This document shows, one piece after another, positions 16,064 through 29,525 of a DNA stretch of 64,000 nucleotides. The stretch is from Gemmatimonadales bacterium. GTDB taxonomy: Bacteria > Gemmatimonadota > Gemmatimonadetes > Gemmatimonadales > GWC2-71-9. Under the pieces are notes generated by a model. It was not told the DNA's origin. It did not search any database and was given only the letters and a program-made list of their open reading frames with translations. A program made the position numbers and the translations under genes. The stretch lies in the NCBI GenBank assembly GCA_035703525.1, contig DASSYA010000026.1, forward strand, positions 9,866 through 73,865. The letters are read 5' to 3'. How positions within the stretch are numbered: position 1 is the stretch's first letter; every line of letters starts with the position of its first letter.

Positions 16064-16716
16064 CCCTCCGCATTGCCCCCAGTGTCTTGAGTGCCGATCT
16101 CGGTCGACTCGGCGAACAGATCGCCGCCGCCACCGAGGGCGGCGCGGACTGGATGCACGTCGACGTGATGGATGGCCACTTCGTGCCCAATCTCACGTTC
16201 GGCGCACCGCTCATCAAGGCGCTCCGGAAGCTCACCGACCTGCCGCTCGATGTCCACCTGATGGTGGATCATCCCGAGGCATACATCGACGAGTACGCCG
16301 CCCTCGGCGCCCGGCTGTTCGCCTTCCATCCCGAATCGACGGTGCATGTGCAGCGACACCTCGTGCACATCCGTGAGGCGGGCATGCAGGCCGGACTCGT
16401 GCTCAACCCCTCGACGCCCGTCGCCTGGCTGGAGGAGATCATCGACGATCTCGATCTCGTGCTGGTGATGTCCGTCAATCCCGGATTCGGCGGGCAGTCG
16501 TACATCCCGGCCTCGACGCGGAAGATCGCCCGCGTCCGCGCCTTGCTCGATGCACACGGTTCGACCGCCCATCTCGAGGTCGACGGCGGGATCACCCCGG
16601 CCACGATCGGCGCCGCGCACGCGGCCGGCGCCGACACCTTTGTCGCAGGTACCGCGGTCTTCGGCCAGGCCGATGTTGCGGCTGCCGTCCGCGCGCTCCG
16701 GGCGGCGGCCACATGA
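16060..16716 (+). CDS. rpe: Ribulose-phosphate 3-epimerase
   Basis: IAPS.LSAD...MHVDVMDGHFVPN.TFG...H.MV..P...MSVNPGFGGQ. Confidence 0.9.
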   Translation: MTLRIAPSVLSADLGRLGEQIAAATEGGADWMHVDVMDGHFVPNLTFGAPLIKALRKLTDLPLDVHLMVDHPEAYIDEYAALGARLFAFHPESTVHVQRHLVHIREAGMQAGLVLNPSTPVAWLEEIIDDLDLVLVMSVNPGFGGQSYIPASTRKIARVRALLDAHGSTAHLEVDGGITPATIGAAHAAGADTFVAGTAVFGQADVAAAVRALRAAAT

Positions 16717-17237
16717 GACTCCACGCCATCGTGAGCCTCCTGCTGCTCGGCGCCGTCGCGTGCGAGGCAGCACAGAACCCGGTCCGCGTCGGCGACATCG
16801 CGCCCGATGCCCGGGTACTCGATCTCGCCACCGGGGACACCATCTCGCTCACCGCTCGCTATGGCGGCGGAGTCACGCTGGTGAACATCTGGGCCACGTG
16901 GTGTCTCCCGTGCAAGGAGGAGATCCCGGCGCTCGACTCCCTCTATCGCGCCCTCGGACCGCAGGGACTCCGGATCGCGGCGGTGAGCATCGACACCCGG
17001 AAGTCCAGCGAGGTGCGCGACTGGATCGCGCCGTTCGGTGTCGGTTTCGATGTGCTCCAGGATCCGTCGGGCGAGATCCAGCGGATCTACCGGACCACCG
17101 GGGTGCCGGAATCGTTCCTGATCGACAAGCGTGGCCGGATCATGCGGATCGTCTATGCCGCCGCCCCGTGGGCCTCGGTGGCAAACCGGCGCATCATCGA
17201 GGCACTCCTCGCCGCCAACCCGGAGCAGGGCGAATGA
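16713..17237 (+). CDS. TlpA/redoxin-family thiol-disulfide oxidoreductase (secreted)
   Basis: Signal peptide followed by VNIWATWCLPCKEEIP (CxxC). Confidence 0.75.
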   Translation: MRLHAIVSLLLLGAVACEAAQNPVRVGDIAPDARVLDLATGDTISLTARYGGGVTLVNIWATWCLPCKEEIPALDSLYRALGPQGLRIAAVSIDTRKSSEVRDWIAPFGVGFDVLQDPSGEIQRIYRTTGVPESFLIDKRGRIMRIVYAAAPWASVANRRIIEALLAANPEQGE

Positions 17238-17764
17238 AGCGCCAGGGACTCTGGATCGCCTCGATCGTCGCCGGCTTCATCCTGCTCGGCTGGGGATTGG
17301 CGACCTTTGCCCCCCCCCCGGATGGCGTGACCATCGGCAGGACCGCACCCGACTATCGCGCGGTCAGTCTTGCCACCGGTGACACGGTCTCGCTCCGGGA
17401 TGCCTATCGGGGGCAGGTCACGCTCCTCAATGTCTGGGCCACCTGGTGCGCCCCGTGCCGAGCGGAGATGCCGTCGATGGAACGCACCTATCAGGTGTTC
17501 AAGGATCGGGGCTTCCGGATCGCCGCGGTGAGTGTCGATGTCGGCGAGTCCGACAAGGTGCGGGCGTTCCAGCAGGAATTCGGGCTCACCTTCGACATCC
17601 TGCACGATGCCAGCGGCCTGATCCAGCAGCGCTACCAGATGATCGGCGTGCCGCAGTCGTTCCTGCTCGACCGGCGCGGCATCGTCCGCTTCGTCTCGCT
17701 GGGCGAGGAGCATTGGGACTCCGACACCAACCGCGCGCGCATTGAAGCGCTGCTCGCCGACTAG
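17234..17764 (+). CDS. TlpA/redoxin-family thiol-disulfide oxidoreductase, tandem paralogue
   Basis: Internal ATG of ORF 16550..17764 in an ATGA overlap. TM anchor followed by LNVWATWCAPCRAEMP. Confidence 0.75.
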   Translation: MKRQGLWIASIVAGFILLGWGLATFAPPPDGVTIGRTAPDYRAVSLATGDTVSLRDAYRGQVTLLNVWATWCAPCRAEMPSMERTYQVFKDRGFRIAAVSVDVGESDKVRAFQQEFGLTFDILHDASGLIQQRYQMIGVPQSFLLDRRGIVRFVSLGEEHWDSDTNRARIEALLAD

Positions 17765-17767
17765 CTG

Positions 17768-18805
17768 ATGCGCGTCCTCGCGATCGAATCCTCCTGCGAC
17801 GAGACCTCCGCCGCCATCGTGCACCGCGAGGGCGACGTCGTCACGCTGGAGAGCCTCGCGATCCTCTCCCAGGACATCCATCGGATCTTCGGGGGCGTGG
17901 TGCCCGAGCTGGCGTCACGGGCTCACCTCGAGACAATCGGTGCGGTCGTCGAACAGGCCCTTGGCGAGGCGCATGTCGGGATGGCCGGCATCGATGGCCT
18001 CGCCGTGACCCGCGGGCCCGGGCTTCTCGGCGCCCTGCTGGTCGGTGTGTCGTGGGGCAAGACCGTGGCATGGCGGGAGCGACTGCCGCTGATCGGCGTG
18101 CACCACCTCGAGGGCCACCTCTTCGCGCCGGTGCTCGAGGATCCCTCGGTGGCGCCACCGTTCATTGCCCTGCTGGTGAGTGGCGGGCACACCATGATCC
18201 TCGACGTCCCCGCGTGGGGTGAGTATCACCTGATGGGGCACACGCGCGACGATGCGGCGGGCGAGGCGTTCGACAAGGTCGGGACGCTGCTCGGACTCGA
18301 CTATCCGGCCGGCGCCGGCATCGAGCGGCTGGCCCGGACCGGCGACCCGACGCGCTTCGTCTTCCCACGGCCGCTCCTCGGCTCGCGCGATGACCCGTTC
18401 GGCTTCTCGTTCAGCGGCCTCAAGACGGCGGTGCTCCGCGCGGTGCAGCAGGTCGACGACCTCGACGGGGCCAGGGCCGACCTCGCGCGTGGCTTCCAGG
18501 ATGCCGCAATCGACGTCATGGTGCAGAAGACCCGGAAGGCCGCGGAGGCTGCCGGGCGCGACCTCATCGTACTGGGGGGGGGAGTGGCGTGTAATCGGAC
18601 CCTGGCCACCGAGATGCGTGCGGCCACCGCGCCCTGGGCGCATGTGGCGGTCGCCTCGCCCCGACTCAACACCGACAACGCCGCGATGATCGGGGCCGCC
18701 GGCAGCTGGCGCCTGATGCGTGGTGAGCGCGATGATCACACCCTCGAGCCGAGCGACGCGTTGCCGCTGCCCGGCCTCGTGACCCGGACCGGAGCCGTCG
18801 CATGA
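17768..18805 (+). CDS. tsaD: tRNA N6-adenosine threonylcarbamoyltransferase TsaD
   Basis: MRVLAIESSCDETSAAIV...HH.EGH...GGGVACN. Confidence 0.9.
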   Translation: MRVLAIESSCDETSAAIVHREGDVVTLESLAILSQDIHRIFGGVVPELASRAHLETIGAVVEQALGEAHVGMAGIDGLAVTRGPGLLGALLVGVSWGKTVAWRERLPLIGVHHLEGHLFAPVLEDPSVAPPFIALLVSGGHTMILDVPAWGEYHLMGHTRDDAAGEAFDKVGTLLGLDYPAGAGIERLARTGDPTRFVFPRPLLGSRDDPFGFSFSGLKTAVLRAVQQVDDLDGARADLARGFQDAAIDVMVQKTRKAAEAAGRDLIVLGGGVACNRTLATEMRAATAPWAHVAVASPRLNTDNAAMIGAAGSWRLMRGERDDHTLEPSDALPLPGLVTRTGAVA

Positions 18806-19641
18806 TCACCGTCCAGCCGCTCGAGTTTCACATCGGCCCGCTGCCGATCACCGGCTTCGGCCTCACCATGGCGCTCGCCTTCATCGTCGGCGCGTGGCTG
18901 ATGGAGCGCGAATCTCGCCGGCTCGGTTTCGCGACCGACTACGTCGCCGACATGATCCTGGGCGCCGTCGTCGGCGGGATCGTCGGGGCCAAGCTCTGGT
19001 TCGTGGCGCTCTACGGGGTGGACGCCCTCTTCTCCCGCTCCGGCCTGGTCTTCTACGGCGGCTTCCTCGGTGGCGTCCTCGGCGTGATTCTCGTCGGGTG
19101 GGTCAAGCGGGTCCCGATTCGCTGGACGATGCACCTCGTGGCGCCGGCCCTCGCGGCCGGGTATGCCATCGGTCGGGTCGGCTGCTTCGTGGTCGGCGAC
19201 GACTATGGCCGACCGACCGACCTCCCGTGGGCCGTCGCATTCCCCAACGGCAGCCCCGCGTCGCTCGCCGGCACCATGCAGCGGCTGTTCGGGACGACCT
19301 TTCCGGAGGGGACCGATCCGGCCACGCTCGTGGCCGTCCACCCGACTCAGCTCTACGAGGTCGCCATCATGCTGGTGGTGTTTGCGATCCTCTGGCGCTG
19401 GCGGCGGCAGGGGGCCGGGACCGGCTGGCTCTTCGGGGCGTACCTGGTCTTCGCGGGCGCCGAGCGGTTCGTGGTCGAGTTCCTCCGGGCCAAGGACGAT
19501 CGCTTCCTCGGGCCCCTCACCCTGGCCCAAGCCACCGGGATCGTCTCCGTGGTCGTCGGAATGTGGCTCTGGAGCCGGTTTGCCGGGACGGCACCCATCG
19601 AACCGGGGGCGTACCTGAGCCGGGGGAAGGCGTCGGCCTGA
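18802..19641 (+). CDS. lgt: Prolipoprotein diacylglyceryl transferase
   Basis: GLTMALAFIVG...YGGFLGG...GRVGCFVVGDDYG.... Confidence 0.9.
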   Translation: MITVQPLEFHIGPLPITGFGLTMALAFIVGAWLMERESRRLGFATDYVADMILGAVVGGIVGAKLWFVALYGVDALFSRSGLVFYGGFLGGVLGVILVGWVKRVPIRWTMHLVAPALAAGYAIGRVGCFVVGDDYGRPTDLPWAVAFPNGSPASLAGTMQRLFGTTFPEGTDPATLVAVHPTQLYEVAIMLVVFAILWRWRRQGAGTGWLFGAYLVFAGAERFVVEFLRAKDDRFLGPLTLAQATGIVSVVVGMWLWSRFAGTAPIEPGAYLSRGKASA

Positions 19642-19671
19642 AGGCCCCGCCCTCACTGGAAATACTCGTAC

Positions 19672-19700
19672 TTGACAGAACACCTAGGACCCCCTAGGTT
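19672..19700 (+). promoter_or_regulatory. Sigma-70-type promoter of sRNA copy 1 (TTGACA-N17-TAGGTT)
   Basis: TTGACA at 19672-19677, a 17-nt spacer, then TAGGTT at 19695-19700. Spacing to the conserved TGACGCC (13 nt after the -10) is identical to copy 2. Confidence 0.55.
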
Positions 19701-19706
19701 TTTCCC

Positions 19707-19861
19707 TAGTCAGTGACGCCAAGCGGCATCGGCGCCACCAGAAAAAGTCCCAGGGCGAAGAAGGGTGAAGCGAACACATTTGTTCGTCTTCGTATACTCA
19801 GGGGGCGTCCTGGGACCTCCACGGAGAAGGCCCGTCACAGATCGTGTGGCGGGCCTTTTCG
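19707..19861 (+). ncRNA. Candidate structured small RNA, copy 1 (three hairpins plus intrinsic terminator); family unknown
   Basis: Near-identical core shared with 21624..21772. Hairpins: GUGaCGCC/GGCGcCAC; GUCCCAGGGCG/CGUCCUGGGAC; GAAGCGAACA/UGUUCGuCUUC. Terminator GGCCCGUCACA-gaucg-UGUGGCGGGCC-UUUUC at 19829-19860. Confidence 0.65.
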
Positions 19862-19944
19862 CGTGTGCCCGGCGTTGGCAGCAACAGCGGGACCGGCTAT
19901 GATGCAGGAGCACGAGCGACCACCCACCCCCGAGGAACTGATGC

Positions 19945-19976
19945 CCAGCCGCCCAGCCGTCCAGCCGTCCAGCCGT
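19945..19976. repeat. Tandem octanucleotide repeat, 4 x CCAGCCG(C/T)
   Basis: Direct reading. Lies 26 nt upstream of the ATG at 20002. Confidence 0.9.
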
Positions 19977-20001
19977 CCGAAGGGCTAGCACCCTCGCCTC
20001 C

Positions 20002-20205
20002 ATGACCCTCTTGTTGCTCGCGGCCTGCGGCGACGACTCTGTCCTGCCGGAGCCGGTCGAGAGCGACCGAGCTCCGACGACGTCGGCAAGCCTTCTGACT
20101 TGCTCCAAGGGAAACTTCGCGCAATTCTTCGCGCTCTGGGACTGCAGCCAGTCCGTCCAGTTCTACGCGCCACAGGGTCCAGTCCGCACCGCCGACAACC
20201 AGTGA
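20002..20205 (+). CDS. Small putative lipoprotein (very short signal peptide MTLLLLAAC)
   Basis: LAAC lipobox at residue 9. No in-frame start is available further upstream (in-frame stop at 19939). Lower-GC region. Confidence 0.35.
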   Translation: MTLLLLAACGDDSVLPEPVESDRAPTTSASLLTCSKGNFAQFFALWDCSQSVQFYAPQGPVRTADNQ

Positions 20206-20615
20206 CGAACGCCAATCCGGTGAACCTCTACGTAACCAGCATCACCGGTACCGGCGGCATCGACACGATGCCGATCCATGACCCAGGGTCCTATCTACTG
20301 ACGGCACACTTGGGCGCGGGGGACAACACCGGTGTCACATTCAAGTGGACCATCATCTTCAGCAATGCGCTCGGCGACTCGGTCGTCAGCCACTCCGACA
20401 CCCTGCCACCGTGGGGATCACGGAATCGAACGGTGGTCGTCCCCTCGCCGATCGGCAGCTATACCATCACCGCCCGTGTTCGAGCTGGCCGAGATACGAC
20501 TGTCGGAAGTGTGACTTCCCACGACTTCGCGGTCTGCCCACGACCGATCGGAAATGACTTGAAGGACAAGACTGACGACGGCGGGAACGGCACCGATGCC
20601 GTGGGGCAGTGCTGA
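20202..20615 (+). CDS. Hypothetical protein (GTG start in a GTGA overlap with the preceding ORF)
   Basis: Part of ORF 20100..20615. VTNANPVNLYVTSITGTGG...YTITARV looks like a beta-rich secreted domain. Could alternatively be the frameshifted continuation of 20002..20205. Confidence 0.4.
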   Translation: MTNANPVNLYVTSITGTGGIDTMPIHDPGSYLLTAHLGAGDNTGVTFKWTIIFSNALGDSVVSHSDTLPPWGSRNRTVVVPSPIGSYTITARVRAGRDTTVGSVTSHDFAVCPRPIGNDLKDKTDDGGNGTDAVGQC

Positions 20616-21580
20616 TGCGGCACGACCTCCGGACCTCCATCCCACTTTGCTTCCGGCGAGGTCTTGTCGCCGCAATGCTGTTGGCAGGCGCGGCATGCAC
20701 CGGGGAGTCGATCGGGCCGACGCCTCCGGCCGAGCCAACCGGTACTATCCTCGCGTTCCACCCCATCGGGCGCCTCTACCTGATTGATGCCGCAGATCTC
20801 ATGACATCTGAGTTCTCGCGCTCCCCTGCTCAGCTCCTCTGGGATGGTTCGTCCCTCATGCCCAGTGCCACCCTTGTGATTGGGGGAGCGTATGCCGCAA
20901 CACGGGAGGCTCGAAGCATCGAGCCTGCCACCGGCATCACGCGAACTCTTCTCCCACTTGGCGACGAGGAAGGCGTACTGTCCGCGAAGGCGTCGCCCGA
21001 CGGGAACCGGATCGCGCTCAGCGTGTTTGGCCGAGGCGGCGGCAATGCCGACCAACTGCTCCTCCTCGATGTGGCCACCCGACAGGTCAGCGTCCTGTGG
21101 ACCCGCCCGCCGAACACGTCGGAGGAGATTTCGTTGGTATCACTGCATTGGCTGCCGGACCAGAGTGGACTTGTGGCGCTCGCCGTAGACGGAGCCGGCC
21201 CCCCGGACTTCGGGACGGTCAGGATTGCGCGATTCGACTTCGCGTCCGGAGTGCTCAGTTTCCTGCCCCAGTCCGGGACACTCACGCGCACCCCGACACT
21301 GGACATCTCGCGTGACGGCCTTACGCTCGGCTACAGCTTCGAGGATGGCCGGATCCGTTTCATTCGACTCGATGGCTCCCCCGCACCGGGCCTTCCCGAT
21401 AGCATCCACGGCATCTTCCCGACGTTTTCACCTGACGGCCGCCTTCTGGCCTACTCACGGATCGACAACAACTTCCCGGCGAACGAGGAAGGGATCTGGA
21501 TCCACCGGTTCTCGGACGGCGCCGAGTGGAAGCTCCTCCCCCCAGGTGACCCAGTGACCTGGGTTCTCGACTGGGAGTGA
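20609..21580 (+). CDS. Lipoprotein with TolB/PD40-like beta-propeller repeats
   Basis: LLAGAAC lipobox. Repeated SPDGNRIALS, SRDGLTLGYS and SPDGRLLAYS motifs are typical of PD40/WD40-like blades. Confidence 0.6.
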   Translation: MLMRHDLRTSIPLCFRRGLVAAMLLAGAACTGESIGPTPPAEPTGTILAFHPIGRLYLIDAADLMTSEFSRSPAQLLWDGSSLMPSATLVIGGAYAATREARSIEPATGITRTLLPLGDEEGVLSAKASPDGNRIALSVFGRGGGNADQLLLLDVATRQVSVLWTRPPNTSEEISLVSLHWLPDQSGLVALAVDGAGPPDFGTVRIARFDFASGVLSFLPQSGTLTRTPTLDISRDGLTLGYSFEDGRIRFIRLDGSPAPGLPDSIHGIFPTFSPDGRLLAYSRIDNNFPANEEGIWIHRFSDGAEWKLLPPGDPVTWVLDWE

Positions 21581-21588
21581 CCCCCCAC

Positions 21589-21617
21589 TGGACAACCGCC
21601 CTCCGACCCCATAACTT
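21589..21617 (+). promoter_or_regulatory. Sigma-70-type promoter of sRNA copy 2 (TGGACA-N17-TAACTT)
   Basis: Same -35/-10 geometry as copy 1, and the same 13-nt distance from the -10 to TGACGCC. Confidence 0.5.
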
Positions 21618-21623
21618 GGTTCC

Positions 21624-21772
21624 CAGATGGTGACGCCAGCCTGACCGGTGCCACCGGACAAAGTCCCAAGGCGAAGAAGGGTGAAGCGAACAGCCTTGTT
21701 CGTCTTCGTATACTCAGGGGGCGTCTTGGGACCTCCACAGAAAAGGCCCGCCACATCGTGGCGGGCCTTTTC
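21624..21772 (+). ncRNA. Candidate structured small RNA, copy 2
   Basis: Core AAAGUCCCAAGGCGAAGAAGGGUGAAGCGAACAgccUUGUUCGUCUUCGUAUACUCAGGGGGCGUCUUGGGACCUCCAC. Terminator GGCCCGCCAC-auc-GUGGCGGGCC-UUUUC at 21745-21772. The next gene is on the opposite strand. Confidence 0.65.
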
Positions 21773-21795
21773 GCATCCGGTCCCCGCGACGCTCG

Positions 21796-23910
21796 CTACT
21801 CGCGCGTGGCGACTTCCTCGGCGCTCGACTCGACCACCGTCGCACGCAACCGCTCAACCTCCGCGCGCAGTGCCGCCAGGTCGGCCTCCATCTGTTCGAG
21901 CGAGCGCAACACCGCGCCCTCGACGCCGGGACCGGCTGGACGCGGTGCCAGCCCCGGCAACGGCGCACTCGCGGCGCTCGTGCCCGCGACGGCGGGAGCA
22001 GCGACCGCGGTCCGTCGCCGGGCGATCCCGAAGATCCAGATGAGCGCCACCAGCGCCAGCGCCACCAGCACCCCCTGCGCCAGCAACGACTCGACCGTCG
22101 GATAGATGCCCAATGCGGCGATCCGCGGCCAGCCCGGCAGGACCGTCGTCCCGACCACGCCGCCCGCCTGCAACTCGGCGATCCCCTTCCCCGCGAAGAC
22201 GAACGCGGTGTAGTAGAGGAACGCGCTGGTGGCACCGAAGAACGGCCGGAGTGGCAGCTTCACGCCGAATCGGTTGATCAGGATATAGACCACCGCGAGC
22301 AGGGCGCCACCGACCAGGATCCCGGCAACGACAGGTCCGACGCTGCCGCCGGTCGGGCCGCCCGAGACCAGCAGGGCCTTGTAGAAGAGCACCGTCTCGA
22401 ACCCCTCGCGATATACCGCCAGGAAGGCGGCAGAGGCGAGCGCGAAGGCCGACCCGCCGGTCACGGCAACCTGGACCCGTTCCTTGACGAACGCCGTCCA
22501 CTTCTGGACCTCCATCTTCGAGAGCAGCCAGTAGCTCACGTAGAAGAGCACCACCACCGCCACCAGCATCGTGATTGCCTCGAGCACCTCCTGGTGCGCA
22601 GGCGAAAGCTGGAACACCGTCTCGAGCAGCACGGCGGTGAGCACCGACAGCGCCACAGCCGCCCCGACCCCGATGTGAATGTCACGCTTCCGGTGACTCG
22701 CCCCGATCTTGACCAGGAAGGCGATCAGCGCGCCGATGATCAGGATCGCCTCGAGGCCCTCGCGGAGCATGATCATCAGCGACTGCACGAAGAGATTGAG
22801 GGGCGAGGTCTCGTCGGCCACCACCCGCTCGGCGCGTTCGAGGCCGGCATAGAGCTCGCCGGCCACGGCGCCGAGCTCGTCGCGCGTCGCTCCCCCCCCC
22901 ACGCGAGTGCGGAGGGTCGCGAACGAGGCCTCGAGATCGGTGGCCAGCGCGGGGTTCTTGGCGCGCACCGTCCGTTCGACCTGCTCGAACGCCAGGTAGG
23001 CATCGAAGGCGGCGGTGATCGCGGCGTCGTGCTTCCCCTCGCGCGCCAGCTTGCCTGATTCGTCGACGTGCCGGCGCACCGTCGCGAAGATCGCGGCCCG
23101 CGCCGCGCCATCATCGGCGTCCATCTGGTAGGAGCGCACCGCCGACACGGTGGCCGGCGTAGCCCCGTCGCCGAGCGCCGCGAGCAGCTGGCTGTCGTTC
23201 ATCGTCGCGACGGTGCCGAAATCCCGGAGTGCCGCGGGGACATCCCCGGCCGGTTCAGGTTGACGGAGTGTCGACGCGTAGAGGGCAAGGGCCCAACGAT
23301 CGGCCGCCGGCATCCGGCTCTCGTACGCCGGCATCGCGGTCCCGGCCACCCCGATGGTGATCCGCTGGTAGAAGGCGAGCGGAGTCACATCGGCCAGAGC
23401 CAGATGGTCGGTCAGGTCGGCGGGCGCGGGGTCGAGGCCGCGGCCCGCAAGACCATCACCGCGGCCGAGCGTGCCATGGCAGGAGGCGCACTGCGCCTGG
23501 TACAGTTCGGCGCCGCGCGCGAGGCTGGGGGTCCGGATGGGGATCTCGACCAGGGCGATGCCGAGGGAGCCACTCAAGTGTGTGGTCAATCGCTTGACCG
23601 CCGCATCGATCGAATCGGGCGACGCGGTACCGCTCACGAAGGCGAGCGCCGCGTCGAGATGCACCAGCGCCGAATCGACGACCGCGTTCGGCAGCAACGC
23701 CGCCGCTCGCCGAGCCTCGGTCAGGAACAACCGGGCTTCGTCGACCTCGGCAGGCATCACCACCCGACCATCGACCACACCGATGCGGTATTCCTGCGCC
23801 GCCAGTTCGGCCGAGGCCGCGATCCGCCGTGCAGTCGCGACGGAATCCGGGCCGGGAGCCGGACTGAACACTGTGAGGAGGAACGCCGCCTGAACGAGAA
23901 TCATTCTCAA
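21796..23910 (-). CDS. Cytochrome c domain fused to an FTR1-family high-affinity iron permease
   Basis: CASCHG haem-binding motif in the N-terminal periplasmic part. Two REGLE-type motifs (REGLEAILIIGALIAFL, REGFETVLFY) lie in the multi-TM part. C-terminal charged coiled-coil-like tail. Confidence 0.8.
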   Translation of the reverse strand: MRMILVQAAFLLTVFSPAPGPDSVATARRIAASAELAAQEYRIGVVDGRVVMPAEVDEARLFLTEARRAAALLPNAVVDSALVHLDAALAFVSGTASPDSIDAAVKRLTTHLSGSLGIALVEIPIRTPSLARGAELYQAQCASCHGTLGRGDGLAGRGLDPAPADLTDHLALADVTPLAFYQRITIGVAGTAMPAYESRMPAADRWALALYASTLRQPEPAGDVPAALRDFGTVATMNDSQLLAALGDGATPATVSAVRSYQMDADDGAARAAIFATVRRHVDESGKLAREGKHDAAITAAFDAYLAFEQVERTVRAKNPALATDLEASFATLRTRVGGGATRDELGAVAGELYAGLERAERVVADETSPLNLFVQSLMIMLREGLEAILIIGALIAFLVKIGASHRKRDIHIGVGAAVALSVLTAVLLETVFQLSPAHQEVLEAITMLVAVVVLFYVSYWLLSKMEVQKWTAFVKERVQVAVTGGSAFALASAAFLAVYREGFETVLFYKALLVSGGPTGGSVGPVVAGILVGGALLAVVYILINRFGVKLPLRPFFGATSAFLYYTAFVFAGKGIAELQAGGVVGTTVLPGWPRIAALGIYPTVESLLAQGVLVALALVALIWIFGIARRRTAVAAPAVAGTSAASAPLPGLAPRPAGPGVEGAVLRSLEQMEADLAALRAEVERLRATVVESSAEEVATRE
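23896..23908. promoter_or_regulatory. 6-1-6 palindrome GAGAAT-c-ATTCTC overlapping the FTR1 start codon (Fur-box-like)
   Basis: Perfect inverted repeat seen directly. It resembles the tGAtAAT-N-ATTaTCa half-site arrangement of Fur boxes and sits at an iron permease start. Confidence 0.3.
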
Positions 23911-23945
23911 TCGCTTTTTCGAGGACGAGAAATGATAGCGCTCGG

Positions 23946-23982
23946 AGGATCAAGGATCAAGGACGAACGGATCCTTCATCCG
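23946..23982. repeat. GGATCAA/GGATGAA heptad hairpin element (family 2), copy 1
   Basis: GGATCAA GGATCAA GGACGAA, then CGGATCCTTCATCC (reverse complement GGATGAAGGATCCG). AAGGATC/GATCCTT forms the stem. Lies just downstream of the acpS stop. Confidence 0.7.
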
Positions 23983-24363
23983 TCAGCCTTCGAGGATCGC
24001 CACCGCCGCCGCGACATCGCGCGAATGGGAGATCGACAGGTGGATCGTGACGCGGTGGGGTGCCAGCAGCAGGGCGGCGCGACCGGCCAGCACGACCTCG
24101 GGGCGACCGTCGGGGAGGCGGCGGACGCCGATCTCCCGCCAGCCGACTGGCCGACTGCCCGGGAGGATCTGGAGCGCCTTGTAGACCGCCTCCTTCGCCG
24201 CAAGGCGGGCAGCGAACGCCGGCGCCGGGTCTCCCAGTGACTCCACGTAGGCGCGTTCCACCTCGGTCAACGTCCGCGCCTTGATCCGGTCGCCGAGCCG
24301 AGCGAGCAGGTCGCGGGCCCGGGGCACCTCGACCACGTCGAGTCCGAGGCCGACTATGGCCAT
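23983..24363 (-). CDS. acpS: Holo-[acyl-carrier-protein] synthase
   Basis: Internal ATG gives MAIVGLGLDVVEV.R...FAARLAAKEAVYKAL...ISHS. Confidence 0.85.
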   Translation of the reverse strand: MAIVGLGLDVVEVPRARDLLARLGDRIKARTLTEVERAYVESLGDPAPAFAARLAAKEAVYKALQILPGSRPVGWREIGVRRLPDGRPEVVLAGRAALLLAPHRVTIHLSISHSRDVAAAVAILEG

Positions 24364-24950
24364 GGCAGGCTCCAGAACGCCTGGCCGATCGGATCGAACC
24401 ATGCCGGCGCGGGGAGCCAGCCGCCGAGCCACGCCGCGAGGAGCGTCACCAACGGGATCGTGACCCCAGCGGCGATGAGGAGCGGCCGCCACGGGCGTCG
24501 CCAGTGCCGGACCCCCGACGCCACCCGGTTCCAACGATCCTGCTCTCGACGGGCGACCGCCTGCGCTCGGTCCCAGGCAGCCTCGAGTGCGGCGCCGCGC
24601 ACGCGGTCGGTTGCCGCACCCGGCGCCAGCCCTTCCAGTCGTTCGAGCTCGATCCCTTCGGCCGTGAGCTGTTCGATCAGCCGTGCCCGCGCCGCCTCAT
24701 CCGGCAGCAATGCCGCGAGCGTGGGCTTCGGCATCCGGGAGTGCAACGCTGCGTTCTGCAGTTGGCCCGTGGCGGTCGCGAGGAGGCTTTCCGCGAGGGT
24801 GACTGACGCCGCATGCCAGGCCGCGACCCATTCCCCGCCAGCGGGCTCGCCGGCCGAGACGAGCCGGTCGACCAGCGCGAGACGGACCCGTTCGTCACCC
24901 GCGTTTCGTCCCGGTGCGCCGAGGCGCCCGAGGGCCGGAGCCAGGCTCAT
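24354..24950 (-). CDS. Hypothetical protein with C-terminal TM anchor
   Basis: 198 aa, ATGA overlap with the upstream CYTH gene. C-terminal LLIAAGVTIPLVTLLAAWLGGWL. No recognised domain. Confidence 0.5.
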   Translation of the reverse strand: MSLAPALGRLGAPGRNAGDERVRLALVDRLVSAGEPAGGEWVAAWHAASVTLAESLLATATGQLQNAALHSRMPKPTLAALLPDEAARARLIEQLTAEGIELERLEGLAPGAATDRVRGAALEAAWDRAQAVARREQDRWNRVASGVRHWRRPWRPLLIAAGVTIPLVTLLAAWLGGWLPAPAWFDPIGQAFWSLPWP

Positions 24951-25537
24951 GGCGTCCCTCGGGGCCAGTGTGACGGCGGACCATCGCTCAAGGCGAGCAC
25001 CGCCGTTCGGCCGGTGCGACGCTGATACGCGGCGGCGAATGCCGGGAGTGGCTCGGCGGAGAACGCCTCGCGCGGGAGTCCGGTGGCCGAGATCAGCCGT
25101 TCGATGGCGGCCGCATCACCCTCGACCTCGAGCAGGACATCCATCTCGGGATACCACTCGATCCGGGCTGCACCGCCATCCAGCTGCCACACCTCGACAT
25201 GCCGATCGATCACTTCCGTCACCTGGTAGCCCAACGCATCGATGATGGCGCCGATCCGCTCACCGGGTGCAAGGACGGCCTCGTGCTCCAGTCGTGCCTT
25301 GTAGCCGTCATGGGTGTGGGTCGGCCCCTTCCACGCCACGACCTCCGTCGGCGTGCCCTCGAGCGGCATCCGATGCCGCACACGGAGGACCTGATCCTGC
25401 TCGGCGAGCTCCCCCCCCCGATCATGGCGACGATCCTGGAGTCGCCCGGCGAAGGTGCAGGTGGCACCGTGCCGCCGCAATGCCGCACGCACCGCATCGG
25501 GATCGTCGACGCGGGCCTTCAATTCGAGTTCGAGCAC
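24947..25537 (-). CDS. CYTH-domain protein (class IV adenylate cyclase / triphosphate tunnel metalloenzyme family)
   Basis: GTG start gives VLELELKARVDDPDAVRAALR...QVLRVR...EWYPEMDVLLEVE, an ExExK-type N-terminus. Only the 3' third of the 659-aa track ORF is real. Confidence 0.7.
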   Translation of the reverse strand: MLELELKARVDDPDAVRAALRRHGATCTFAGRLQDRRHDRGGELAEQDQVLRVRHRMPLEGTPTEVVAWKGPTHTHDGYKARLEHEAVLAPGERIGAIIDALGYQVTEVIDRHVEVWQLDGGAARIEWYPEMDVLLEVEGDAAAIERLISATGLPREAFSAEPLPAFAAAYQRRTGRTAVLALSDGPPSHWPRGTP

Positions 25538-26238
25538 AGGATGGCCTCCAGGACCGCATCGGTCGGCTCGAGGGTCCCGAAGGTGGCATGGGCCCCGGCG
25601 GCGCGCAGCTCGTCCACGGCATACGACCCGGTGGCGACGGCGACGGCCCGCGCGCCGATCCCGGCGCCGCAGGTGACATCCGCCGGCGTGTCCCCGATGA
25701 TCACCACCCGGTGACCGACCGGGGTGTGCCCCAGCAGCGCGGTGGCACGGTCGACGGCGACGGGCGGCAGCTCCGGCCGGTGTTCGCTGTCGCTGCCGTA
25801 GGCACCGAGGCGAAACCGATCGAAGGCAATGCCGGCCGCACCGAGCTTGAGCCGGGCGCCCGGCTCGACGTTGCCGGTGAGCAGGCCGAGGCAGACGTGC
25901 GGCATCGCCTCGAGCGCGTCGAGGAGCGCGGGCACCCCCGGGCAGACTCCGACCAGGTGGGCGCGCTCGGCCAGTTCGACATGCAGGTGCACGAGGTAGC
26001 GTTCGATCAGCGCCGACGTGGCTGCATCGGAGGCCCGGTCGGGGAAGCCGGCCGCCACATGCAGCTCGCGCACGATCTGTCGATCCGTCTTGCCATCGAA
26101 GCGCACCAGTTCGAAGAATTCGGTCGAGGCGTACTCGCTCGCGAAGGCGGCCTCGATGGCTCGGCGGCCCGCCTGCGCGCTCGAGAGCAGTGTCCCATCG
26201 ATATCGAACAGGACGAGCGTGGTGTCGGGCGCGGTCAT
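25519..26238 (-). CDS. HAD-superfamily hydrolase (phosphoglycolate phosphatase-like)
   Basis: LVLFDIDGTLL...LLTGN...IIGDTPADV. ATG at 26238 is in an ATGA overlap with the upstream gene. Confidence 0.75.
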   Translation of the reverse strand: MTAPDTTLVLFDIDGTLLSSAQAGRRAIEAAFASEYASTEFFELVRFDGKTDRQIVRELHVAAGFPDRASDAATSALIERYLVHLHVELAERAHLVGVCPGVPALLDALEAMPHVCLGLLTGNVEPGARLKLGAAGIAFDRFRLGAYGSDSEHRPELPPVAVDRATALLGHTPVGHRVVIIGDTPADVTCGAGIGARAVAVATGSYAVDELRAAGAHATFGTLEPTDAVLEAILCSNSN

Positions 26239-26990
26239 GTGAGCCGACGGACCGCGACGAGGAGCGGTCGGAGTGAGGCCGCGCGCGTGTCGGGACCCCA
26301 ACGCTCGCGGACCACCCGACCTGCGGCGACCGCTGCATGCACCAGCATCCCGTCGGCATCGGCGATTGCGACATGATCGATCCGGTCACTCCCGGCACTC
26401 CGGAAGAAGAGCAGGTCACCCGGCGCGATGGTCTCCGGGGTGCATGCGAGCCCCAGCGCTGCCTGGCCCGCTGCATTCCGTGGCAACGGCACCCCCCGCG
26501 CGAGGAACGTGGTCTGCACCAGGCCGCTGCAATCGATCCCGCCCCGCGTGAGGCCGCCCCAGAGATACGGCGCCTCGCCGAAGGCTTGCCACGCCCAGGC
26601 GGCCGGCGTGGTCGCCTGCGCGGCCGCGATCGCGTCGGCCATCGTCGCGAAGGTGCCGCCGACCACGTCGGCGGTGCGTCCATCCGGCAGCCGGACCCGG
26701 TCGGTGCCCTCGCGCTGCACCCTGGCGCGATGGGGCACCGCGCACGACCCGGACCCGACCACGACTGTCCCCCCCCCGGACCATGCGGCGGTGACCAGCC
26801 AGGCGTCGTGACGGTGGCGGTCCACCGGGAGGACATACCCGCGGTGCACCCAGCCGTCCACGCCGTCGAGGGAGGTCCGGATGCGGAAGAAGGCATCCTG
26901 CTGTTCGCGGATCTCGGCCCCTTCACCCAGCAGAAGCTGGGTCACCTGCTCGCTCCGCAGTCCGGGCGCGGCGAGGACCGGCGTGACCAT
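26235..26990 (-). CDS. NlpC/P60 (C40) peptidoglycan endopeptidase with N-terminal SH3-like region
   Basis: YLWGG....GIDCSGLVQ...GDLLFF......DHVAI. The start is either 26990 or 27038; the latter overlaps the CxxC ORF. Confidence 0.75.
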   Translation of the reverse strand: MVTPVLAAPGLRSEQVTQLLLGEGAEIREQQDAFFRIRTSLDGVDGWVHRGYVLPVDRHRHDAWLVTAAWSGGGTVVVGSGSCAVPHRARVQREGTDRVRLPDGRTADVVGGTFATMADAIAAAQATTPAAWAWQAFGEAPYLWGGLTRGGIDCSGLVQTTFLARGVPLPRNAAGQAALGLACTPETIAPGDLLFFRSAGSDRIDHVAIADADGMLVHAAVAAGRVVRERWGPDTRAASLRPLLVAVRRLT

Positions 26991-27010
26991 CGATGTGCCC
27001 AGCAGGTGCG

Positions 27011-27196
27011 TCACGCCGGCGTGGCCTTGGCCGAACATTCCCGGCAGACGGTGACGCCACGGATGGTGCAGACGAGACAGACGAAGGTGCCACAGACGTC
27101 ACACGGATAGCCTTCGGAGGCGCGCTCCTCCCGTCCGCAACTGCGGCAGAGCATGGCATCGCGCTCGACGAGCTCGGGACGATTGGTGGCAGCCAT
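27011..27196 (-). CDS. Small cysteine-rich protein with four CxxC pairs (61 aa)
   Basis: CRSC, CDVC, CLVC and CREC motifs. Its ATG is in an ATGA overlap with the stop of the upstream NtrC-like gene. GC3-rich. Confidence 0.5.
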   Translation of the reverse strand: MAATNRPELVERDAMLCRSCGREERASEGYPCDVCGTFVCLVCTIRGVTVCRECSAKATPA

Positions 27197-28539
27197 CAGT
27201 TCGGTATCGCGTATCGCTTGATCTTGGCGATGAGTGTGGCCCGGGAGATGCCAAGTTCCTCTGCTGCCCGGGTCCGGTTGCCCCCGTGGTGCTTGAGGGT
27301 CCGTTCAATATGCATCCGTTCGACCTCGGCCATCGTGAGCGGGGTGTGGCGCCGATCGAAGGGGCCGGATCGATCACGAAACTCGCCTGGCAGGTGCTCG
27401 ACCCCGATGGCTGGGCGCCCTCTTGCCAGCAGACACGCCCGCTCCAGCACGTGGCGCACCTCAAGGAAGTTACCTGGCCACGGGTGGGCCACCAACCGCT
27501 CCAGGGCGCTGTCCCCCAGGATCATGGGGGCTCCGGGCACGCCACGCGCCGCCAGCCGAAGGATTCGTTGCATCGCGACGGCCTGCGCCTCGGGGGACAG
27601 CTCCCGGAGCGGCGGTACGGCCAACCGGCCGGGCTTGATCCGGAAGAAGAGTCCTGAGTCGAGCAGCCCGGCGGTCGCGAGCTCACCGATCGGGGAGTTG
27701 GCCGTGAAGATCATCCTGACATCGACCGGGATCTCGCGAACCCCGCCGAGTCGCCGAACGGCCCGGTGTTCGAGCGCCTCAGCCAACCGCGCCTGGACCG
27801 GGAGTGGCGTCTGCCCGATCTCGCGCAACAACAGCGTCCCCTGGTCGGCGACCTGGATCAGGCCGGGTCGGAGCGGACGGCTCGCTGTGGCCTCACTCTC
27901 GACTCCGAACAGCGTCGCTTCCAGCGCCTGCGCATCGGTGCTGGTCGCCGTGGCCTCGATGAACGCCTCACCACGCCGGGGCGAGTGCTCATGAATCAGT
28001 CGGGCCACCTCCGCTCGTCCACTGCCCGTCTCCCCTTCGATCACGAGGGCCATGCGGTCGGATTGTGCCAGCGTGATGGCCTGTTCGCGAAGCCGACGCA
28101 TCGCGGGTGCATCGCCCAGGATGTCGAGCAACGTATCGGATTGTGACTGGCCGATCAGCGCCTGGTTCACCCGTCGCAGCCGGACCTTCTCGGCCGCGCG
28201 TGTCGCCGCGGCCAGCAGATGGGCCAGATCGACCGGCTTGAGCAGGAAGGTCTCGGCGCCGAGGGTCATCGCCCGGACGGCTGTCGGGAGATGGTCGTCG
28301 CCGGTCAGGACAATCACCGCGGTGTTGCTCGAGTCGAGCGCGTCGAGGACCTCGAGGCCGTCCATCCCTGGCAGGTGCATGTCCACCAGGACCACATCGC
28401 TCCGGACCCGGTTGAACGTGGCAAGCCCCGCCTCCCCGGCCAGTTCCCGGTGGACATCCCACCCCTCGTGCTCGAAGGCGGAGCCGAGCACCTGGAGCAG
28501 GGCGATGTCGTCGTCGATGATCAGGATCGAGTTGGCCAT
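27196..28539 (-). CDS. NtrC-family response regulator (REC-AAA+-Fis HTH) with degenerate AAA+ motifs
   Basis: MANSILIIDDD...VLVDMHLPGMDG (REC). GETGSGRAEVA (Walker A, K to R). LFGVESEATASRP in place of GAFTGA. GTLLLREIG (Walker B, D to R). C-terminal NRTRAAEELGISRATL HTH. The 853-aa track ORF over-extends upstream. Confidence 0.8.
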   Translation of the reverse strand: MANSILIIDDDIALLQVLGSAFEHEGWDVHRELAGEAGLATFNRVRSDVVLVDMHLPGMDGLEVLDALDSSNTAVIVLTGDDHLPTAVRAMTLGAETFLLKPVDLAHLLAAATRAAEKVRLRRVNQALIGQSQSDTLLDILGDAPAMRRLREQAITLAQSDRMALVIEGETGSGRAEVARLIHEHSPRRGEAFIEATATSTDAQALEATLFGVESEATASRPLRPGLIQVADQGTLLLREIGQTPLPVQARLAEALEHRAVRRLGGVREIPVDVRMIFTANSPIGELATAGLLDSGLFFRIKPGRLAVPPLRELSPEAQAVAMQRILRLAARGVPGAPMILGDSALERLVAHPWPGNFLEVRHVLERACLLARGRPAIGVEHLPGEFRDRSGPFDRRHTPLTMAEVERMHIERTLKHHGGNRTRAAEELGISRATLIAKIKRYAIPN

Positions 28540-28616
28540 GAGCTCCAGCAGCGTGGGGAGCGGGTTGCGTCCAGCCCGGAATCTAAGACCGCCTCCACGA
28601 AGTGCCGCGGCACCGC

Positions 28617-29525
28617 TCAGGAGGGAGGCATCATGACCGAGATGGCGCCGGGGAGCACGGTGGCGGTGAACGGAGTCTCGCCACCCGGGTCGCCGTCGAG
28701 CTGCACCACCTGCTCCGCGCCCTCGGCCACCTCGACCCGCACCTCGGTGCCGCGGGCATGGGCGACGAAGACATCCTTGCCGTAGGTCCCGCCGCGCTCG
28801 GTCAGCAGGTCCCAGATCGCCCGCATGCTCTGGCCGATCGTGTCGGCGCCCAGCGCGATGACATCGAGCAGGCCATCGGTCGGGGAGATGCCCTGGCCCA
28901 GCTTGATGATCGGCGGGATCACCTCGCCGCAGTTGGCCACCAGCAGCATGGCGGCGTCGACCTGGAGTGGCTCGCCGTCGACCGTGACATGGAAGGGCAC
29001 GTTCCGGATCTCGGGAAGGATGCGGATCATCGTCGCGATGTAGGCCATCATGCCCCAGCGATGCTTCTGTGCGGAGGCGGTCTCCGTCATCACCCGGGCA
29101 TCCGCCCCCGCGCCGGCCGCAACGGCGAAGTACTGGTCTTCCCCCCCCCGCATGATGTGCCCGAGGTCGAGCGGGGCGGCACGTCCCGCGACCAGCGCCT
29201 CGGCGGCGCGCAGCGGGTTGAACGGGATCCGGAGGTTGCCGGCCAGCAGGTTGCCGGTCCCGCCGGGGAGCAGGCCGAGTGCCACGCCGGTGCCGACCAG
29301 TGCGCCGGCGGCCTGCATCGTGGTCCCGTCGCCGCCAAGCACCGCAACCACGTCCACCCCCTGCTCCACGCCGTAGGCGGCCAACCGTCGGGCGTCCCCG
29401 GAGCCGCCAGTCGCCAGCACTTCGAGTGACCAGCCCGCCCCGCGGAGCACCCGCTCGATTCCCCGGACCGTCTGGGCCTCGGTGCGCGCGGCGTTCGGGT
29501 TCGCGATCAGGATCGCACGCGCCAC
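28617..29525 (-). CDS. Diacylglycerol kinase-family lipid kinase (YegS/BmrU-like)
   Basis: ILIANPNA...VVAVLGGDGT...LGLLPGGTGN. GTG start directly abuts the tamB stop. Confidence 0.8.
   Translation of the reverse strand: MARAILIANPNAARTEAQTVRGIERVLRGAGWSLEVLATGGSGDARRLAAYGVEQGVDVVAVLGGDGTTMQAAGALVGTGVALGLLPGGTGNLLAGNLRIPFNPLRAAEALVAGRAAPLDLGHIMRGGEDQYFAVAAGAGADARVMTETASAQKHRWGMMAYIATMIRILPEIRNVPFHVTVDGEPLQVDAAMLLVANCGEVIPPIIKLGQGISPTDGLLDVIALGADTIGQSMRAIWDLLTERGGTYGKDVFVAHARGTEVRVEVAEGAEQVVQLDGDPGGETPFTATVLPGAISVMMPPS

Follow-up and report, generated by a model that had tools for sequence, protein, structure and literature searches.

Among described bacterial RNAs, GlmY and GlmZ of the Enterobacteriaceae appear most like the element reported here in their regulatory logic. 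That element is a structured small RNA gene present in two copies in a 64,000-nucleotide (nt) stretch of a Gemmatimonadales genome (assembly GCA_035703525.1, contig DASSYA010000026.1, positions 9,866 to 73,865; hereafter the window, with positions numbered from its first letter). GlmY and GlmZ are homologous, independently transcribed, structured RNAs of ~150-200 nt at conserved loci, traits that the Gemmatimonadales RNA shares. In some species their orthologues are transcribed from sigma-70 promoters, in others from sigma-54 promoters that involve upstream activator sites and IHF (PMC3045617). This division parallels that between the two subtypes, type B and type A, of the RNA family described below, and the inverted repeats (T)GTCAA-N7-TTGAC(A) upstream of type B resemble in form the GlrR site TGTCN10GACA. 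Furthermore, GlmY sequesters the protein RapZ through its fold, and a possible decoy mode of this kind completes the analogy with the sigma-54/sigma-70 duality and the activator repeats. The systems differ in that they are alike neither in sequence nor in structure, the Rfam models of GlmY and GlmZ give no match, the phylum is another one, and the gene of a two-component system does not lie directly beside the RNA, the nearest NtrC-type regulator being ~5 kb away.

Other known RNAs share more limited sets of traits. Several paralogous Qrr RNAs with their own terminators are driven in the Vibrionaceae by sigma-54 and the NtrC-type activator LuxO, and our RNA resembles them in the promoter logic of its type B loci and in the number of its paralogues. 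The Qrr RNAs nevertheless depend on Hfq and act by base pairing through a conserved seed of 32 nt that is single-stranded or lies in a loop; the present RNA bears no homology to them, and the window copies have promoters of sigma-70 type. In alpha-r14/NfeR1 and the CcsR 'cuckoo' RNAs, the motif CCUCCUCCC or CCCC occurs two or three times in hairpin loops and is their most conserved part. With these anti-Shine-Dalgarno (anti-SD) RNAs, and with RsaE/RoxS of the Firmicutes, the Gemmatimonadales RNA has in common a pyrimidine-rich anti-SD-like motif, frequent tandem copies and promoters of the stress- or signal-controlled kind. It differs in carrying a single CUCC in a short linker between helices, conserved only in type A and outranked by a purine-rich loop; a repeated, loop-exposed motif of the CCUCCUCCC type was not found in it, and the Rfam models of such families gave no match. 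Finally, invariant internal-loop nucleotides amid covarying helices, as in raiA, 6S and Y RNA, usually point to a defined tertiary fold to which a protein or a ligand binds. Compared with these three, the RNA described here is much smaller and simpler, with a core of ~80 nt and no multistem junction, is confined to one order-level clade and matches none of their families.

Structure and distribution of the RNA family

The original prediction placed two ~150-nt units of the same architecture on the + strand of the window, at 19707-19861 (copy 1) and 21624-21772 (copy 2). Reading positions 19400-22100 and aligning the cores of the two units confirmed this arrangement base for base, and every detail of the description was reproduced at its coordinates. 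In each unit, a sigma-70-type promoter precedes a 5' hairpin of variable sequence, which is followed by the nearly identical core of 80 nt and then by an intrinsic terminator. The cores differ at exactly five positions, three of them in the apical loop (CAU versus GCC) and the remaining two forming a compensatory G-C to A-U change within a helix that we call P2. In fold predictions, copies 1 and 2 both take up the architecture originally proposed, with energies of -74.3 and -74.2 kcal/mol (z-scores of -5.8 and -6.2 against shuffled sequences), and a 20-mer taken from the core occurs twice in the window versus zero occurrences expected. A covariance model built from homologues scores copy 1 at 99.4 bits (E ~1e-25; match at 19739-19818) and copy 2 at 90.8 bits (E ~1e-23; 21655-21734), compared to 16 bits for the next match in the window and 13 bits for the reverse strand of the copies.

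The predicted transcript is a + strand RNA of ~145-155 nt in which the 5' hairpin (P1) and an A-rich linker precede P2, and P2 is followed by a short, pyrimidine-rich tail and a predicted terminator. P2 encloses an apical hairpin that covaries and an invariant purine-rich internal loop, CGAAGAAGGGUG / ACUCAGGGGGCG (its strands also written as CGAAGAAGGGUG opposite GUAnACUCAGGGGGCG). In copy 1, the promoter (19672-19700) has a -35 element TTGACA at 19672-19677 and, after a 17-nt spacer, a -10 element TAGGTT at 19695-19700; the 5' end of the predicted ~150-nt transcript was placed from the position of the -10 element and its 3' end from the terminator. P1 (19713-19738) pairs GUGACGCC at 19713-19720 with GGCGCCAC at 19731-19738 across a 10-nt loop and is followed by the linker CAGAAAAA (19739-19746), single-stranded in the fold. 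The 5' strand of P2, GUCCCAGGGCG (19747-19757), pairs with its 3' strand, CGUCCUGGGAC (19806-19816), a pairing supported by covariation. Between the two lie the 5' half of the loop module (19758-19766; unpaired AAGAA and GGGU, the 5' strand of helix P3a), the P3b/P3c hairpin GAAGCGAACA-CAUU-UGUUCGUCUUC (19767-19791), and the 3' half of the module (19792-19805; a GUAU bulge, ACUC as the 3' strand of P3a, and unpaired AGGGGG). The tail, CUCCAC (19817-19822), is the anti-SD element of the original prediction; delimited as ACCUCCAC (19815-19822), it includes the last two bases of P2, from which the sequence ACCUCC results. The G+C-rich terminator hairpin with its U tract, GGAGAAGGCCCGUCACA...UGUGGCGGGCCUUUUC, occupies 19823-19861. 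The corresponding elements of copy 2 are the promoter at 21589-21617 (-35 TGGACA at 21589-21594, 17-nt spacer, -10 TAACTT at 21612-21617), P1 at 21630-21654, P2 at 21663-21673 / 21722-21732, the tail at 21733-21739 and a terminator, again a G+C-rich hairpin with a U tract, at 21740-21772.

The search for relatives returned about 90 homologues. A pattern scan of JGI metagenomes yielded 19 true homologues and a scan of GTDB species genomes about 68 further ones, the titles of the latter naming Gemmatimonadales, Gemmatimonadota or Gemmatimonadaceae, except for one labelled Actinomycetes and one unclassified. The sources are metagenome-assembled genomes or soil metagenomes. The window organism itself is uncultured, with a G+C content of ~70%, and identical Lgt proteins are encoded on Logan metagenome contigs. 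The scans used exact patterns inside the core, which biases apparent conservation; a pattern-independent sample was assembled from seven genomes picked purely through Lgt homologues and synteny, and the RNA is present in all seven of these loci, at 93-101 bits. Besides the window, tandem copies occur in L039, L046, L062, L081, L085 and L097, the last with three, and tandem duplication of the RNA gene is thus frequent.

The proposed structure was tested for covariation on a core alignment of 52 sequences. Standard pairs occupy 99.5% of the cells, 11 of the 24 pairs show changes on both sides (155 cells), and the covariation score was reached by none of 500 shuffles; when the 3' partners are slid by 1-3 columns, pairing falls to 33-45%. 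P2 is always 11 base pairs (bp) long and pairs in 100% of the cells, with changes on both sides in 7 of its 11 pairs, and P3b/P3c pairs in 98.7% of the cells, with such changes in four of nine pairs. RNAalifold gave a result in agreement with this test. The compensatory change noticed between the two window copies is therefore part of extensive covariation across the family, which supports both P2 and P3b/P3c. Conserved G-U pairs, among them an invariant one in P3a, mark the strand and, together with scores of 99 bits on the + strand versus 13 on the - strand, fix it as +. Outside the core, a hairpin of at least 5 bp stands at the P1 position in 79 of 85 sequences (37/38 in type A, 42/47 in type B), its sequence being free; the linker ahead of P2 is rich in A in type A and type B alike (GAGAAA, GGAAAA, AGAAAAA), and a stable terminator hairpin is found in all homologues. 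Many type B P1 hairpins (L004-L100) are capped by GNRA-type loops (GAGA, GAAA), to which the P1 loops of type A are unrelated, and these caps may reflect a tertiary contact found only in type B.

Open reading frames (ORFs) overlap the units at 19713-19988, 19765-19902 and 21648-22043. They were rejected as coding sequences, as 1-nt indels in the core break the frame and substitutions are compensatory rather than synonymous, those of GAAG/CUUC to GGAG/CUCC being non-conservative as codons. With regard to known families, the 4227 models of Rfam 15 produced no match at gathering score anywhere in the window. At E<=10, the region 19600-21850 returned terminator-like fragments only (e.g. Thr_leader at 17-25 bits versus a threshold of 55), and at E<=1 nothing relevant was obtained for the type A and type B loci L007, L015, L021 and L029. 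In the literature, we found neither a description of this RNA nor one of a regulatory RNA of Gemmatimonadota.

Taken together, these data show a non-coding, strand-specific, structured RNA with its own transcription unit, bearing the marks of small RNA genes in general: a promoter at a fixed distance, a Rho-independent terminator and structure-preserving substitutions. Conserved promoters, terminators, folds and covariation uphold the original claim of a duplicated, independently transcribed RNA outside known families, and the RNA is a genuine, previously uncatalogued family of a large uncultured Gemmatimonadales clade.

Internal loop, tail and proposed mode of action

The elements of the RNA are conserved to very different degrees. 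The loop strands CGAAGAAGGGUG and ACUCAGGGGGCG are invariant in both subtypes, in the pattern-retrieved loci as well as in 7/7 of the synteny-picked ones, and the sole varying base of the module is the third of the GUAU bulge (U, A or G). In partition-function folds across homologues, the strands AAGAA and AGGGGG have unpaired probabilities of 0.96-0.99. Because both strands are frozen while the flanking helices covary, the loop most likely adopts a defined non-canonical fold that a conserved partner recognizes, and the module is probably a binding platform for a protein or another partner. Two resemblances were considered and set aside. A kink-turn needs tandem sheared G-A/A-G pairs, with the GA step on the non-bulged strand beside the C-helix. 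Although GGCGAAGAA equals the bulged strand of the Haloarcula Kt-7, inspection of the opposite strand, ACUCAGGGGGCG, reveals no A adjacent to P2, and the GA step of a Kt-7-like turn is consequently missing. GGGUGAAG and CCUCC recall the 3' end or the A-site of 16S rRNA, but mimicry was likewise set aside, since the register of the helix is a different one and conservation of the tail is lacking.

The original prediction had assigned the working role to the tail instead, as an exposed CCUCC that occludes ribosome-binding sites of GGAGG type. In a broader form, this idea makes the RNA a base-pairing riboregulator whose single-stranded CCUCC tail blocks such Shine-Dalgarno (SD) sequences while the core serves as a stabilizing scaffold or a chaperone handle. 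The motif is indeed present where it was described, and CUCC, in the form (A)CCUCC, directly follows P2 in 29 of the 36 type A sequences. Among type B tails, some have the sequence CACCUCU or CACUCCUC, and pyrimidines make up 73-74% of the tail in either subtype. The A-rich linker and the terminator resemble the layout of Hfq-type small RNAs (of such traits, as far as sequence features go, the RNA has the A-rich linker and AAGAAG, with short U tracts of 4 U), small RNAs that act by base pairing typically occur as tandem paralogues with promoters of stress or signal type, and NfeR1/alpha-r14 provides a precedent.

The exposure of the tail is less convincing than its presence: it measures ~6-7 nt between two strong helices, and its mean unpaired probability across homologues is 0.40-0.47, compared to the near-complete accessibility of the internal loop. 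It is also the least conserved element of the family, type B sequences reading UUGCUUA, UGCUCUA, CUCUCUA, UCCUCGU and others at the position of CUCC, whereas the loop is invariant. Helix candidates between linker and tail (GAG/CUC, AGGA/UCCU, GCGA/UUGC) resemble covariation; in a weak test of duplex energy, cognate type B pairs gave -1.82 versus -1.43 for permuted ones, with 72 of 2000 permutations as low, and the signal is absent in type A. On the target side, about 7 of the 16 genes called at 16713-29525 have a GGAG-, GAGG- or GGAGG-like motif at most 22 nt upstream of their start, so that SD use looks weak in this organism. No target was found in the window. For the invariant loops, too, the window yielded no target: apart from the RNA genes, it contains complements of GAAGAAGGGUG and UAUACUCAGGGGGCG no more often than chance predicts. 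The variable type B tails, the invariant loop and the weak SD motifs thus speak against the occlusion of ribosome-binding sites as the working principle, and we consider it rather unlikely that the RNA works chiefly by such pairing. Pairing of the tail with SD sequences may be, at most, an accessory function in type A, or a lineage-specific one.

We therefore tentatively favor a reading in which the RNA is a trans-acting regulator whose loop module is the working part, most plausibly in the role of a protein-binding decoy or adaptor. Action in trans is suggested because the downstream gene is convergent, and sigma-54 control and paralogue expansion, described below, are counted as hallmarks of regulatory RNAs. 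Under this scheme, the level of the RNA would be set by transcription, which in type A would be strong or constitutive, judging by the near-consensus TTGACA promoters, and in type B would depend on a signal relayed by a sigma-54 activator. The invariant module, held by P2 and P3, would then present its strands in a defined non-canonical fold to a partner that is itself conserved and recognizes it; the most plausible partner is a protein, sequestered or adapted as in GlmY-RapZ or CsrB-CsrA. Outside the conserved core of this mechanism, the pyrimidine-rich tail (in type A, CUCC) may additionally pair with SD regions rich in purines.

Several considerations weigh against this interpretation. Retrieval by exact patterns makes the invariance of the loop partly a matter of construction, and the unbiased sample amounts to only seven loci. 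The 4-bp P3a (GGGU/ACUC), which borders the loop strands, never varies, so that its pairing is unproven. Most independently transcribed bacterial RNAs of such size act by base pairing, and the purine-rich loop strand or the pyrimidine-rich tail could serve as a pairing seed. Furthermore, no candidate gene for an RNA-binding protein is linked to the locus, whose neighbors are housekeeping or iron-uptake genes, and the absence of the family from the syntenic site in Gemmatimonadaceae means that it is not universal in the phylum. A bolder and unlikely variant holds that the loop is a new fold specifically binding a small ligand or an unlinked protein. The RNA would then be a clade-wide, stand-alone sensor or decoy whose input was rewired between two-component control through sigma-54 and control through sigma-70 while the module stayed frozen, maybe tied to iron uptake through its constant neighbor, the FTR1 gene with its Fur-box-like element.

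Promoter classes of the two subtypes

The two subtypes occupy the same genomic site, and promoter class correlates perfectly with subtype. In type A, which includes the window copies, P2 reads GUCCCnGGnCG / CGnCCnGGGAC, and a near-consensus promoter, cTTGACAG-N~16-TAGnnT, stands at a fixed distance from the core in 33 of 36 sequences. In type B, P2 reads GUGGUAGGUCG / CGAUCUACCAC, fully covaried, and all 48 sequences carry the sigma-54 promoter TGGCAC-N5-TTGC. Upstream of the latter are two inverted repeats, (T)GTCAA-N7-TTGAC(A), at ~100 and ~160 nt, the distal one abutting the lgt stop codon, and the interval from the repeats to the promoter contains a conserved box, ACTTAYCAC. Promoter, box and repeats together form a complete sigma-54 enhancer architecture. 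Across the type B loci L004-L106 (e.g. L005, L019 and L099), the sigma-54 elements span ~60-190 nt upstream of the RNA, with the repeats ~60 nt apart. Neither TGGCAC-N5-TTGC nor GTCAA-N7-TTGAC was found near the window copies, which are of sigma-70 type; the -24/-12 elements and activator sites of sigma-54-dependent small RNAs accordingly belong to the orthologous type B genes. Since types A and B share one site, they are orthologues by position in which one promoter class was exchanged for the other, and GlmY/GlmZ offers a documented precedent for such a switch.

Gene content suggests candidates for the regulation of the type B promoter. A gene for an NtrC-type response regulator (Response_reg, Sigma54_activat and HTH_8 domains) lies on the - strand at ~27196-28539, ~5 kb from the RNA, and its presence at about this distance from the site is conserved in this clade and in Gemmatimonadaceae (L104-L106, L108). 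In many type B loci, a PAS-HisKA-REC hybrid kinase gene directly follows FTR1. Either product is a candidate.

The copy 1 promoter has a peculiarity of its own: the repeats CCTAGG, CCTAGG and CCCTAG (at 19683, 19693 and 19704), spaced by 10-12 nt, span its spacer, -10 element and start site. They are common to the sub-lineage comprising L030, L034, L044 and L085 and do not occur in all type A promoters; they may constitute an operator.

Genomic neighborhood and significance

In nearly all loci, the RNA follows the gene order ...rsmB-PASTA-rpe-ahpC-tsaD-lgt and precedes a convergent gene for an FTR1/cytochrome-c iron permease, from which it is separated by 24-60 nt in almost all cases. In the window, this ORF extends over 21796-23904 on the - strand, with its stop at 21796. 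Its ATG is overlapped by a Fur-box-like 7-1-7 palindrome, TGAGAAT-G-ATTCTCG (23895-23909, - strand), which is conserved in type A and type B loci (TGAGAATGATTCTCA, TGAAAATGACTCTCA), and an SD-like motif is absent from the gene start. Pairing of the RNA with the FTR1 leader was discarded, as a 7-bp match, CUCUUCU/AGAAGGG, present in some type B leaders is absent from type A and hence not conserved. The A-tract on the 5' side of the copy 2 terminator, read on the - strand, amounts to a U-tract that lies 24 nt beyond the FTR1 stop (21740-21798); the terminator is thus bidirectional and ends the convergent gene as well, so that the small RNA and the iron-permease mRNA share one terminator. Such a bidirectional terminator, which FTR1 uses too, is a feature shared by both subtypes.

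This arrangement bears on whether the RNA could be a ligand-sensing, riboswitch-like element whose terminator gates read-through antisense into the convergent FTR1/cytochrome-c gene. The near-constant proximity of that gene is what such an element would call for, the palindrome marks FTR1 as a regulated gene, and invariant loop nucleotides amid covarying helices look aptamer-like. Moreover, RNA, FTR1/cytochrome-c gene and acpS are all missing together from the syntenic site in Gemmatimonadaceae (L107, L108 and L109; Lgt 46% identical), where lgt is the last gene of the tsaD-lgt operon and CYTH-like and HAD genes, in convergent orientation, lie 16-48 nt beyond it. A riboswitch or leader is nonetheless unlikely because there is no overlap between P2 and the terminator, and an alternative, antiterminating pairing of P2 or the tail with the terminator is not apparent. 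The RNA is retained where genes have been inserted between it and FTR1 (the window, L030, L110 and L113), window copy 1 does not stand in convergent orientation to FTR1, a single cis target gives little reason for tandem copies, and no Rfam riboswitch matches. The usual layout of a riboswitch or leader, an aptamer upstream of an ORF on the same strand with an overlapping expression platform, was not found either, and the convergent downstream gene, already cited in the original prediction against a leader for a downstream ORF, proves to be the ancestral arrangement in nearly all homologous loci. We regard the antisense riboswitch as very improbable.

The two window copies flank a 1.7-kb segment of lower G+C content (0.60-0.65 versus ~0.70; 19875-21580, + strand) that is not part of the RNA. 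It has a promoter-like site of its own (19875-19903) and lipoprotein-like ORFs at 20002-20205, 20202-20615 and 20675-21580; two have an N-terminus resembling a lipobox, and PD40 repeats occur in the last. In L039, orthologues of copies 1 and 2 are adjacent, only ~110 nt apart, and the second has the same TGGACAAC...TAGCTT promoter as copy 2. The window pair is therefore an older tandem duplication into which the segment was inserted (or within which it was kept), and this adjacency also dismisses an att-site or insertion-scar origin of the duplication. Unrelated genes stand just downstream of the RNA in L030, L110 and L113 (468-760 aa; the last two without recorded Pfam domains), which together with the window marks a recurrent insertion spot. 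A mobile or phage origin of the RNA was rejected, as viral contigs gave no match and single copies sit at a fixed site.

The same observations bear on a more trivial explanation, a repeated intergenic element: a bidirectional terminator module, a structure of the lgt 3' untranslated region, or direct repeats generated by the 1.7-kb insertion. Copies flanking the segment, a terminator that also serves FTR1 and the ending of contigs of related assemblies inside the repeat would all fit, although the last is explained by assembly breaks at a repeat. Most genomes, however, have single copies of the same structure without the insertion, the tandem pair predates that insertion, conserved promoters of two classes lie upstream, P2 and P3 covary outside the terminator, and no viral contig matches. 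This explanation is already largely refuted, and we give it next to no credence.

Judged by conservation, the anti-SD tail is not the key element, which corrects the first reading of the sequence. Gemmatimonadota are among the most abundant soil phyla and are understudied, and the family provides them with a well-supported RNA gene whose structure has been tested by covariation, whose promoters are defined and whose genomic position is fixed, and which can be searched for in soil metatranscriptomes. Furthermore, orthologues with an identical core that swapped a sigma-70 for a sigma-54 promoter constitute a natural experiment, showing how small RNA regulons are rewired. If it is true that the frozen purine-rich loop binds a protein or a ligand, it would represent a new RNA recognition module.

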